DNA from: Escherichia coli
GTDB taxonomy: Bacteria; Pseudomonadota; Gammaproteobacteria; Enterobacterales; Enterobacteriaceae
Strand: one strand, 5' to 3'
DNA: 64,000 bases
Assembly (NCBI RefSeq): GCF_003018255.1
Contig: NZ_CP027440.1
The position numbers were made by a program. Shown piece by piece: positions 3,001 through 5,400 of the stretch. Each line of letters opens with the position of its first letter. Positions within the stretch are counted from its first letter, which is position 1.

Positions 3001-5400
3001 AATATGCCTTCGCACCATGCTTACGCAGATAGTGTTTATCCAGCAGCGTTTGCTGCATATCCGGTAACTGCGGCGCTAACTGACGGCAGAATATCCCCAT
3101 ATAAGCGACCTCTTCCAGCACGATGGCGTTATGCACCGCATCTTCGGCATTTTTGCCCCATGCAAATGGGCCGTGAGAATGGACCAGGACGCCGGGCATT
3201 TGTGCTGCGTCGATTCCCTGTTTTTCGAAGGTTTCTACGATGACGTTACCGGTTTCCCACTCATATTCACCGTTGATTTCTGCGTCGGTCATTTTGCGGG
3301 TGCAGGGAATGGTGCCGTAGAAATAGTCGGCGTGGGTGGTACCGGTTGCCGGAATTGACTGGCCCGCCTGCGCCCAGATGGTGGCGTGGCGCGAGTGTGT
3401 GTGCACAATGCCGCCAATGGACGGGAATGCCTGATAGAGCAGCCGGTGAGTTGGCGTGTCGGAGGAGGGCTTTTTCGTTCCTTCAACCACTTCACCGGTT
3501 TCGATGCTGACCACGACCATATCGTCAGCGGTCATGACGTTGTAATCGACGCCGGAAGGTTTGATCACCAAGACGCCGCGCTCGCGATCAACGGCGCTGA
3601 CATTGCCCCATGTGAGCGTGATCAGGTTATGTTTTGGCAGCGCCAAATTGGCTTCTAATACCTGGCGTTTGAGATCTTCTAACATGTTGACTCCTTCGTG
3701 CCGGATGCGCTTTGCTTATCCGGCCTACAAAATCGCAGCGTGTAGGCCTGATAAGACGCGTCAGCGTCGCATCAGGCGGTGAATGCCGGATGCGCTTTGC
3801 TTATCCGGCCTACAAAATCACAGCGTGTAGGCCTGATAAGACGCGTCAGCGTCGCATCAGGCGTTACACACCTGATGCGGCTACTTAGCGACGAAACCCG
3901 TAATACACTTCGTTCCAGCGCAGCGCGTCTTTAAACGCTGGCAGGCGGGTATCGTTATCAATCACCGTGATTTCAATGTCGTGCATCTCGGCGAACTGGC
4001 GCATATCGTTGAGGTTCAGCGCATGGCTGAAAACGGTATGGTGCGCGCCACCAGCAAGGATCCACGCTTCGGAAGCAGTTGGCAGATCCGGTTGCGCTTT
4101 CCACAGCGCATTCGCCACCGGCAGTTTCGGCAGGGAGTGCGGTGTTTTCACCGTGTTGATGCAGTTAACCAGCAGACGGTAACGATCGCCGAGATCAATC
4201 AGGCTGGCGACAATCGCTGGACCGGTTTGGGTATTGAAGATCAGGCGGGCAGGATCGTCTTTACCGCCAATACCGAGGTGCTGAACGTCGAGGATCGGTT
4301 TCTCTTCCACAGCGATCGACGGACAGACTTCCAGCATGTGGGAGCCGAGCACCAGGTCATTGCCTTTCTCGAAGTGATAGGTGTAGTCCTCCATAAAGGA
4401 GGTGCCGCCCTGCAGACCGGTTGACATCACCTTCATGATGCGAAGCAGGGCGGCAGTTTTCCAGTCGCCTTCGCCCGCAAAGCCGTAACCCTGCTGCATC
4501 AGACGCTGTACGGCCAGACCAGGAAGCTGTTTCAGACCGTGCAAATCTTCAAAGGTGGTGGTGAACGCGTGGAAGCCACCTTGTTCCAGGAAACGCTTCA
4601 TCCCCAGCTCAATACGCGCCGCTTCCAGCACGTTCTGGCGTTTTTCGCCGTGGATTTGTGTGGCAGGCGTCATGGTGTAGCAGCTTTCGTACTCATCGAC
4701 CAGCGCGTTAACATCGCCATCGCTGATGGAGTTCACTACCTGCACCAGATCGCCAACCGCCCAGGTATTGACGGAGAAACCGAACTTGATCTGTGCGGCA
4801 ACTTTATCACCATCGGTGACCGCCACTTCACGCATGTTATCGCCAAAACGGCAGACTTTCAGATGACGGGTATCCTGTTTAGAGACCGCCTGACGCATCC
4901 AGGAGCCGATACGCTCATGGGCTTGTTTATCCTGCCAGTGACCGGTAACGACGGCATGTTGCTGACGCATACGCGCGCCAATGAAGCCGAACTCGCGACC
5001 GCCATGTGCAGTCTGGTTCAGGTTCATAAAGTCCATATCGATGCTATCCCACGGCAGCGCCGCGTTAAACTGGGTGTGGAATTGCAGCAACGGTTTGTTG
5101 AGCATAGTCAGGCCGTTGATCCACATTTTGGCCGGGGAGAAAGTGTGCAGCCACACTACCAGGCCAGCGCAACGATCGTCGTAATTCGCGTCACGGCAAA
5201 TAGCGGTGATTTCATCCGGCGTGGTGCCCAGCGGTTTCAGCACCAGTTTGCAGGGCAGTTTCGCTTCCGTATTCAGCGCATTAACGACGTGCTCGGCATG
5301 TTGGGTGACCTGACGCAGGGTTTCCGGGCCATACAGATGCTGGCTGCCAATTACAAACCACACTTCATAATTATCAAAAATCGTCATTGTCGTGTCCTTA

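Follow-up and report, generated by a model that had tools for sequence, protein, structure and literature searches.

The spacer between araA and araD in the 64 kb window of E. coli DNA (the whole stretch that was analysed) harbours, judged from its sequence, a known E. coli BIME-2 in an allele with two units; in this type of bacterial interspersed mosaic element, REP units of the Y and Z2 type alternate in inverted orientation. By analogy with REPs studied in other operons, this strain-variable element probably functions as a hairpin barrier in the arabinose operon mRNA, which is the best explanation of the data as a whole. The array is already described in the literature on strain MG1655, and REP and BIME sequences have been known since the 1980s. 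Since the locus itself has already served as a biochemical substrate, its finding carries little weight as a discovery.

The araBAD transcript corresponds to the minus strand of the window, which encodes araB (5398-7098, assigned via NCBIfam), araA (L-arabinose isomerase, 3885-5387; NF002795, 896.9 bits) and, downstream of the repeat, araD (L-ribulose-5-phosphate 4-epimerase, 2990-3685; TIGR00760, 447.5 bits, full length). Two further neighbours assigned via NCBIfam are polB (564-2915) on the minus and araC (7386-8315) on the plus strand. From the araA stop codon (3885-3887) to the araD start, the spacer measures 199 nt and is nearly filled by two 85-nt units. The array is extragenic throughout, extending neither into the araA stop codon nor into the araD Shine-Dalgarno sequence. 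The latter sequence (AAGGAG, 3691-3696, minus strand, read directly) is followed by the ATG 5 nt further on and preceded by the last REP hairpin at a distance of 3 nt. An ORF scan of the spacer found no ORF of at least 20 aa on the operon strand. Three plus-strand ORFs (51-73 aa) were considered for coding potential and rejected as antisense read-throughs of the REPs; one of them also continues antisense into araD.

The repeat search revealed two direct repeats in head-to-tail arrangement (3699-3783 and 3784-3868), which are identical at 81 of 85 positions (95%). According to Tandem Repeats Finder, the window contains only two arrays, of which this one has a period of 85, 1.9 copies, 98% matches and a score of 323. 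The four mismatches between the units (3735, 3779, 3781 and 3782) are confined to the linkers. Within each unit, a tail-to-tail linker of 12 nt joins a short palindromic unit of the Y type to an inverted one of the Z2 type, and a head-to-head linker of 6 nt (GGTGAA or GTTACA) completes the repeat. In unit 1, the Y-type palindromic unit TGCCGGATGCGCTTTGCTTATCCGGCCTAC (3699-3728, plus strand; in the mRNA GUAG and a hairpin of -12.9 kcal/mol) is followed by the S-type linker AAAATCGCAGCG (3729-3740), the Z2-type unit (3741-3777, minus strand; hairpin of -20.6 kcal/mol) and the linker GGTGAA (3778-3783). In unit 2, the palindromic-unit matches place Y at 3784-3813 (plus strand) and Z2 at 3826-3862 (minus strand), with the linkers at 3814-3825 and 3863-3868. 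A truncated fifth palindromic unit (3869-3884, plus strand), consisting of the head ACCTGATGCG (head motif match at 3870-3879) and GCTAC, adjoins the araA stop codon. The preliminary description had reported two near-identical palindromic units of about 80 bp; number and near-identity were borne out, whereas the length is 85 nt and each unit comprises two inverted palindromic units and two linkers.

REPs are defined as imperfect palindromes of 30-40 nt with a conserved GTAG/CTAC tetranucleotide at the foot (PMC3333891). All four palindromic units (30 and 37 nt) end with GGCCTAC and fold into hairpins that are interrupted by an internal mismatch or loop. The REP tail motif TATCMGGCCTAC occurs five times in the window compared to 0.00 expected from 100 shuffles, and four of the five copies are located in the araA-araD spacer. 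A comparison with the REP consensus, proposed as a check in the preliminary description, was carried out with Y and Z2 reference sequences taken from PMC11208160. The Z units matched the published Z2 at 35 of 37 positions. The Y units matched the reference at 28 of 35 positions and have an apex 5 nt shorter, but retain the Y-diagnostic G/C pair and the CTAC foot, and were therefore assigned to a short variant, which also occurs in other genera. In addition, the Rfam model RF02564 (naRNA4) matched end to end at 3745-3810 on the minus strand with 59.6 bits, a borderline score given the gathering score of 59.5; other registers scored 17-42 bits. Together with the designation of the MG1655 locus as a BIME (PMC3333891), these matches confirm the earlier assignment of tandem REP/BIME units to this spacer.

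BIME-2 elements consist of y and z2 in tandem copies joined by an S linker, with a copy number that varies between strains (PMC3333891). The order Y(+), Z2(-), Y(+), Z2(-), the 12-nt tail-to-tail linker in place of a long L linker, and the tandem copies (two here; one, two, three or four in other E. coli) all correspond to this type. BIME-1 or RIB/RIP elements (Y and Z1 with a long L linker containing an IHF site) belong to the same REP superfamily and are likewise extragenic. In contrast to them, the array is tandemly repeated, has Z2 rather than Z1 as partner and is devoid of a long linker; the IHF core WATCAANNNNTTR was not found in 3686-3884, and a BIME-1 reading was dropped for this reason. 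On both strands, the features of a TnpA(REP)/RAYT substrate are present, namely a 5' GTAG with a mismatch-bearing hairpin, together with a CT cleavage dinucleotide located either in the linker or in the inverted REP.

In total, three REP clusters were found in the window. The two outside the arabinose operon, previously placed at 9185-9272 and 47275-47462, are indeed REP clusters, the first being a single Z2 and Y pair (9186-9271) and the second containing four palindromic units (47260-47452). An IHF core was observed in a cluster elsewhere in the window, at 47346.

In mRNA sense, the spacer folds with -99.2 kcal/mol (z = -6.7 compared to shuffles), the individual hairpins ranging from -12.9 to -20.6 kcal/mol. 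Both a match to the REP consensus and a potential for secondary structure, on which the preliminary description had made the REP assignment depend, were found. In the minimum-free-energy fold, the spacer is closed off by five base pairs that the last araA codons (UUCGU) form with ACGAA, located immediately ahead of the araD Shine-Dalgarno sequence; these pairs are lost in alleles bearing a boxC-like insertion. In the araBAD transcript, the spacer would fold as five hairpins, four of them formed by REPs and one proximal to the stop codon. These would stop 3'-to-5' exonucleases, by which the upstream araB-araA message would be protected, and may cause some pausing or Rho-assisted attenuation ahead of araD. 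Overall, expression would be shifted modestly in favour of araBA over araD, with the araD ribosome-binding site left free. The terminator scan detected no intrinsic terminator on the minus strand between 2900 and 4500, and intrinsic termination was rejected, since the hairpins on the operon strand are never followed by a T-run (T runs on the sense strand of the spacer reach a length of 4 at most, and there is no U-run). Any termination in the spacer would therefore be Rho-dependent or based on pausing.

The intercistronic REPs of malE-malF and hisJ-hisQ are classical mRNA stabilisers. They share with the araA-araD array the location of REP hairpins between genes of an operon, 3' of the more highly expressed gene; their role is backed by direct deletion and half-life data, whereas that of the array is assigned by analogy. 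A summary of the literature on REPs as exonuclease barriers is given in PMC12306157. The closest parallel is REP325 (naRNA4, RF02564), an intra-operon BIME-2 with alternating Y and Z2 between yjdM and yjdN, which stabilises the upstream mRNA and partly terminates transcription (bioRxiv 10.64898/2026.03.23.713779). Upon its deletion, upstream yjdM decreased (log2FC -1.74) and downstream yjdN increased (+3.36), and termination was partly Rho-dependent (same preprint). Differences are found in size, as REP325 has 12 palindromic units and the array four and a remnant. Compared to the RF02564 model, which was built on REP325, the array is also shorter by 5 nt in the Y apex and by 6 nt in the head-to-head linker. 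REP325 showed Rho dependence only as the complete 12-unit array, fragments with 2-4 hairpins being Rho-insensitive (bioRxiv 10.64898/2026.03.23.713779), and the araA-araD array with its 4-5 hairpins may therefore attenuate little. REP effects were also described there as context-dependent, with reporter insertions that were not always stabilising. The role of mRNA stabiliser or partial terminator suggested in the preliminary description corresponds to what REPs generally, and REP325 in particular, are known to do, and we infer it for the araA-araD spacer from these relatives. Apart from the use of the araA-araD REP as a TnpA(REP) substrate, full-text literature searches yielded no study of its function. 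In published RNA-seq data, which cover uninduced cells only, base means were 196 for araA and 78 for araD, a ratio of approximately 1.2-fold after length normalisation and uninformative. Loss of araD function causes arabinose sensitivity via accumulation of L-ribulose-5-phosphate, so that strong polarity on araD should be selected against.

The number of units varies considerably within the species. In 59 E. coli genomes, picked at even steps down a ranking, the spacer measured 114 nt (8 genomes), 168 nt (18), 199 nt (11), 284 nt (21) or 423 nt (1), and contained one, two, three or four units, as confirmed from the sequences; a boxC-like insertion was present as well in about 30% of these spacers. 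A 451-nt query was found at a median of 10 places per E. coli genome. The 43-mer made up of the short Y and the S linker was found at 9240 places in 5100 genomes, and since it has a median of one and at most five places per genome, it is restricted to the araA-araD locus. Linker variants are common to the units of one strain. The mean minor-allele frequency was 0.014 for Y and 0.040 for Z2 versus 0.149 and 0.175 for the two linkers. The array appears to have originated locally, through tandem duplication of a single 85-nt module (Y, S linker, Z2 and short linker), and not by separate insertions. The unit number would then drift across strains, recombination between the repeated TGCCGGATGCG heads being one likely route, to which the REP-associated Y1 transposase TnpA(REP)/RAYT may contribute. 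The MG1655 element (PMC3333891) has the same locus, flanks and 85-nt unit, with only scattered substitutions in loops and linkers, but contains three units in a 284-nt spacer instead of two units in 199 nt.

Stable palindromic or structured araA-araD spacers are found in 77 of 79 Enterobacteriaceae species (median z = -4.1). When the 80 folded spacers (the window included) were classified by motif, 40 contained REPs, 17 boxC-like elements, one both and 20 other GC hairpins; that of Leclercia has a hairpin resembling an intrinsic terminator, with T6 behind it. In 29 aligned lineages, the araD-proximal REP hairpin is found at a conserved position, with 95.7% of the alignment cells paired and compensatory changes at two pairs. 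The presence of three unrelated palindromic classes at one junction hints that structure rather than sequence is kept.

These observations bear on the possibility, real though not probable, that the array is no more than a selfish or neutral passenger, which occupies a permissive intergenic site, owes its upkeep and its changes in size to RAYT activity and replication slippage, and does not affect araBAD expression in any meaningful way. In favour of this, the number of units varies freely from one to four, and a boxC-like element is tolerated alongside in an operon that is kept. As unit number is free to vary in healthy lineages, it can be argued that element dosage matters little. Two species lack any element at this junction (L023, with an 11-nt spacer, and L075, with no spacer), and REP effects are weak and depend on context. 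Moreover, B315 and B316, two 'partial BIMEs' taken from the araD-A region of MG1655, are cleavage and strand-transfer substrates of TnpA(REP) in vitro (Ton-Hoang et al. 2012, PMC3333891). Neutrality is difficult to reconcile with a stem-loop at the exact junction in nearly all species, drawn from three sequence classes, and with an araD-proximal REP whose position and pairing are maintained over genera. The palindromic units are also far more conserved than the linkers, a constraint that could equally serve the transposase.

A rather doubtful addition, compatible with the mRNA barrier, is a translational brake on araA, by which a hairpin behind the stop codon would stall the terminating ribosome and lead to mRNA cleavage, tmRNA tagging and less AraA. 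For REPs at most 15 nt from a stop codon, ribosome stalling at termination has been proposed (Liang et al. 2015, as summarised in PMC12306157). Here, the inverted repeat CGCAUCAGGUGU-GUA-ACGCCUGAUGCG (3853-3879, minus strand; -19.1 kcal/mol) begins 5 nt past the araA UAA and is part of the minimum-free-energy structure computed for the entire spacer. In E. albertii and Escherichia sp., the position of the truncated fifth unit reads TGCCGGATGCGGCTAA, the first 11 nt of the Y unit, and the truncated Y unit of other Escherichia likewise begins 5-8 nt past the stop. However, the stop-proximal element is a truncated unit, and a complete REP (Z2) does not start until 22 nt past the stop. The stop-proximal hairpin also competes with that of the Z2 of unit 2 (-20.6 kcal/mol). 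The stem is also not constant: MG1655 has ACCGGATGCG instead of ACCTGATGCG in the truncated terminal unit, and the resulting mismatches make its stop-proximal stem poorer than that of the window allele.

Less likely still is a role at the DNA level, either as gyrase binding and cleavage site or topological buffer in a strongly inducible operon, or as landing pad for REP-targeting insertion sequences. BIME-2 elements are reported to be cleaved by DNA gyrase in vivo (Espeli and Boccard 1997, as cited in PMC3333891 and PMC12306157), and REPs are referred to as topological insulators in citations in PMC3333891. Both Z2 units contain the exact natural target of IS621, ATCAGGCCTAC (in unit 1 at 3742-3752, minus strand; target sequence from PMC11208160). 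The replacement of REPs by boxC-like elements or simple hairpins across genera better fits a property of the RNA or of a DNA hairpin than a sequence-specific gyrase site.

A function as source of an naRNA4-type nucleoid-associated noncoding RNA, condensing the chromosome with HU, is very improbable and was dropped. It is suggested by the RF02564 match, which lies exactly at threshold; the model is in effect a generic Y/Z2 REP pair, so the match indicates homology to REPs and not function, and REP325/naRNA4 was reported not to compact the nucleoid measurably (2026 preprint from the same laboratory line, bioRxiv 10.64898/2026.03.23.713779). GC-rich hairpins and regularly spaced repeats might be taken for an intrinsic (Rho-independent) terminator or for a CRISPR-like array; both readings are refuted by the sequence, as the operon strand lacks a hairpin with T-run and, in agreement with the preliminary description regarding CRISPR, the units are contiguous and only two in number, with 6-12-nt linkers recurring in both instead of unique spacers, and with araBAD, araC and polB rather than cas genes as neighbours.

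With an mRNA hairpin barrier as the preferred explanation, the natural allelic series of one, two, three or four units, with or without a boxC-like element, in a classic and easily induced operon is well suited for REP-dosage tests of intra-operon ratios. A shortage of AraD is toxic on arabinose, so that polarity due to the element, if any, can be read out physiologically. As a tentative and rather speculative extension, selection throughout the Enterobacteriaceae might favour a stable stem-loop of any family at this junction (REP pair, boxC-like element or terminator-like hairpin); the polymorphism of 1-4 units in E. coli, along with the boxC-like insertion beside the araD ribosome-binding site, might in that case constitute a heritable dial by which the ratio of AraB and AraA to AraD is set differently in different lineages.

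The araA-araD spacer (199 nt, 3686-3884, from the araA stop codon to the araD start codon) contains two 85-nt copies arranged head-to-tail (3699-3783 and 3784-3868), for which a repeat search gave 81 of 85 identical positions. All four mismatches (3735, 3779, 3781 and 3782) are located in linker segments. The flanking ORFs are araD (2990-3685, minus strand) and araA (3885-5387, minus) according to NCBIfam, as named in the preliminary description; polB (564-2915, minus), araB (5398-7098, minus) and araC (7386-8315, plus) were assigned likewise. Since the operon is transcribed leftwards, the repeat comes after the araA stop codon and before the start codon of araD. 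The tandem, near-identical palindromic repeat described at this place is real. Tandem Repeats Finder reported the array with a period of 85, 1.9 copies and a score of 323. Besides this, it gave one trivial array in the 64 kb window, a 14-nt tandem repeat at 12821-12849 (2.1 copies, TTGCTGGCGACCAG), which is probably inside a coding region.

On the plus strand, each unit begins with a Y-type palindromic unit of 30 nt (TGCCGGATGCGCTTTGCTTATCCGGCCTAC), followed by a tail-to-tail linker of 12 nt (AAAATCGCAGCG, or AAAATCACAGCG in the second unit), an inverted Z-type palindromic unit of 37 nt (reverse complement GCCTGATGCGACGCTGACGCGTCTTATCAGGCCTACA) and a head-to-head linker of 6 nt. The 16 nt beyond unit 2 (3869-3884, CACCTGATGCGGCTAC), directly adjoined by the araA stop codon (3885-3887), combine the head of one more palindromic unit with a CTAC foot, the two being fused. 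At this position, E. albertii and a second Escherichia species have TGCCGGATGCGGCTAA, the 11 nt with which the Y unit starts. The array therefore consists of n units followed by a truncated (n+1)th head, so that both array ends carry a short direct repeat. The last Y hairpin ends 3 nt short of the Shine-Dalgarno sequence of araD (AAGGAG, 3691-3696). Except for short stretches beside the latter and beside the araA stop codon, the spacer is REP-derived.

The interpretation as REP/BIME units was supported by comparison with the three REP sequences printed in PMC11208160. The Z units match the published Z2 at 35 of 37 positions, while the Y units match the published Y at 28 of 35; the latter keep the Y-diagnostic G/C pair, but have an apex shortened by 5 nt, which makes them Z1-like in length. 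The tail motif TATCMGGCCTAC is found five times in the window (0.00 expected by chance), four of these inside the araA-araD spacer. Rfam naRNA4 (RF02564), a model built on the intra-operon Y/Z2 array REP325, was matched end-to-end at 3745-3810 on the minus strand with 59.6 bits (gathering score 59.5); in the alignment, the Y apex is shorter and the head-to-head linker 6 nt shorter than in the model. BIME-2 elements are defined by y and z2 units, tandem multicopy arrangement, a short S linker and strain-variable copy number (PMC3333891), all of which were found for the araA-araD array. The long linker with an IHF site, as in BIME-1, is absent from it. Judged by its sequence, the element is a textbook BIME-2. 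The array shows no intrinsic-terminator signature (longest sense-strand T run, 4), the spacer contains no sense-strand ORF, and nothing CRISPR-like was seen in the array, in agreement with the earlier statement that these are not CRISPR repeats.

Two further REP clusters reported for the window, near 9185-9272 and 47275-47462, were confirmed. The first is a single Z2 and Y pair at 9186-9271 (Z2 35/37, Y 32/35) between the convergent genes yabI (8401-9165) and thiQ (9279-9998). The second comprises four units (Y, Z2, Y, Z2; 47260-47452) downstream of mutT and includes the best naRNA4 match in the window (47373-47450, 73.5 bits). Its four units, together with an IHF core match (TATCAACATGTTA, minus strand, at 47346) in a tail-to-tail linker of 28 nt, make this cluster atypical or BIME-1-like. 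Other Rfam matches, namely SgrS (14417-14643), the leu leader (19402-19551), the TPP riboswitch of thiBPQ (12561-12660), STnc40 (46788-46857) and tp2 (62621-62734), are those to be expected for this chromosomal region in E. coli. PssrA ("plasmid-encoded Shigella sRNA A") was matched at 41052-41141 (plus strand, 104.9 bits) in the apparent chromosomal ftsA-ftsZ region, a cell-division locus at odds with the family name.

The locus has been used before. The "partial BIMEs" B315 and B316 were taken from the araD-A intergenic region of MG1655, and TnpA(REP), the REP-associated Y1 transposase, performed cleavage and strand transfer on them in vitro, including multiple-REP assembly (PMC3333891). As a textbook BIME-2 whose locus has served in earlier published work, the element is already known. 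Each of the two Z2 units carries an exact copy of the natural IS621 target ATCAGGCCTAC (3742-3752 and 3827-3837, minus strand), and gyrase cleavage has been reported for BIME-2 elements (cited in PMC3333891); targeting by IS621 and gyrase cleavage at this array are putative.

The MG1655 spacer is 284 nt long with three units, in contrast to two in the window allele, which shows 100% identity with strain DETEC-S792 across 451 nt. Spacer length was derived from the match span of a query consisting only of 300 nt of araD and 300 nt of araA, in 59 genomes picked from the ranking at even intervals, a small and phylogenetically non-random sample. Spacers of 114 nt (one unit) were found in 8 genomes, of 168 nt (one unit and a 54-nt insertion) in 18, of 199 nt (two units) in 11, of 284 nt (three units) in 21 and of 423 nt (insertion and four units) in one, TB06052; the contents of each class were confirmed on fetched sequences. 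Four units are also present in L007, a locus titled E. coli from the species-representative genome collection. The 54-nt insertion, which we take to be boxC-like, is palindromic and rich in GC; as a dispersed repeat it occupies a median of 12 places per genome, and it is present in this spacer in about 30% (18/59) of the sampled E. coli genomes. It is placed between the BIME and the araD Shine-Dalgarno sequence, leaving AGGAG intact (fetched alleles L004, 437-604, and L005, 301-723, corresponding to 3686-3698 of the window). This allele spectrum, with its boxC-bearing allele, is mildly new and descriptive only.

The 43-mer formed by the short Y and the S linker was found at 9240 places in 5100 genomes, with a median of one and at most five per genome. 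Since this count matches the unit count at the araA-araD locus, the short-Y variant is private to it, and the units thus stem from local duplication rather than repeated insertion. Linker variants are common to the units within one strain and differ between strains, a pattern that suggests repeated expansion, contraction or conversion of the units. In a comparison of 19 units drawn from 8 genomes, conservation is far higher in the palindromic units (mean minor-allele frequency 0.014 for Y and 0.040 for Z2) than in the two linkers (0.149 and 0.175), in line with the published description.

The potential for secondary structure was checked on the mRNA-sense strand, where the spacer folds with -99.2 kcal/mol, a stability reached by 0 of 200 shuffles. 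The Z2 and Y hairpins have -20.6 and -12.9 kcal/mol, respectively. A stop-proximal hairpin (3853-3879, -19.1 kcal/mol), which starts 5 nt past the UAA, is in competition with the unit 2 Z2 hairpin. The minimum-free-energy fold also contains a pairing of the final araA codons (UUCGU) with an ACGAA located immediately before the Shine-Dalgarno sequence of araD (3680-3700 with 3884-3895, minus strand). It closes the spacer into one domain and places the stop codon of araA beside the ribosome-binding site of araD; this pairing is absent from boxC-bearing alleles.

By analogy with the general REP literature (PMC12306157) and the REP325 preprint (bioRxiv 10.64898/2026.03.23.713779), the hairpins would block 3'-to-5' exonucleases, so that the araBA message is protected, and may pause or partly terminate transcription ahead of araD. 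When REP325 was deleted, expression of the upstream gene fell (log2FC -1.74) and that of the downstream gene rose (+3.36); termination was partly Rho-dependent, while fragments of 2-4 hairpins showed no Rho sensitivity (same preprint). REP effects are context-dependent. Ribosome stalling at the araA stop codon is a possibility compatible with the barrier, suggested by the hairpin 5 nt downstream of this codon and the 15-nt rule (PMC12306157), whereas the first complete REP begins only 22 nt past it. As for the proposed barrier and pausing, the free variation between one and four units suggests a weak dosage effect. A shortage of AraD is toxic on arabinose, and strong polarity is therefore unlikely. 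The araD-proximal hairpin could in addition shield the 5' end of a processed araD message, given the known role of 5' hairpins.

A scan with AraD, using one genome per species, gave 80 loci (90-98% protein identity), 79 of them with the araA end upstream. In 77 of these 79 species the spacer measures 47-369 nt and shows strong structure (median folding z across species -4.1, 90% below -2); only two species lack an element, one with an 11-nt spacer (L023) and one with a deletion (L075). Motif classification of all 80 folded spacers, window included, assigned REP pairs to 40 (Escherichia, Citrobacter, Salmonella, Enterobacter, Lelliottia and others), boxC-like elements to 17 (Klebsiella, Pseudocitrobacter, Kluyvera and others), both together to one and plain GC hairpins to 20 (Leclercia, Phytobacter, Silvania and others). 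The three classes are mutually unrelated. Several plain hairpins have a T-run behind them and are scored as resembling intrinsic terminators (e.g. 1463-1482 then T6 in locus L009). In 31 species of several genera, a REP with a GTAG foot ends 1-10 nt ahead of the Shine-Dalgarno sequence of araD. Given this positional conservation, the short Y of E. coli is the ortholog of an old REP, and the Z2 partner and the amplification are specific to Escherichia. In an alignment of 29 of these 31 lineages, 95.7% of the stem cells are paired and two pairs show compensatory changes, a pattern that could also have its source in the swap of one REP type for another. That some palindromic element is nearly universal at the araA-araD junction across Enterobacteriaceae is likewise mildly new and descriptive; the cross-genus pattern supports, without proving it, selection for a stem-loop at this junction.
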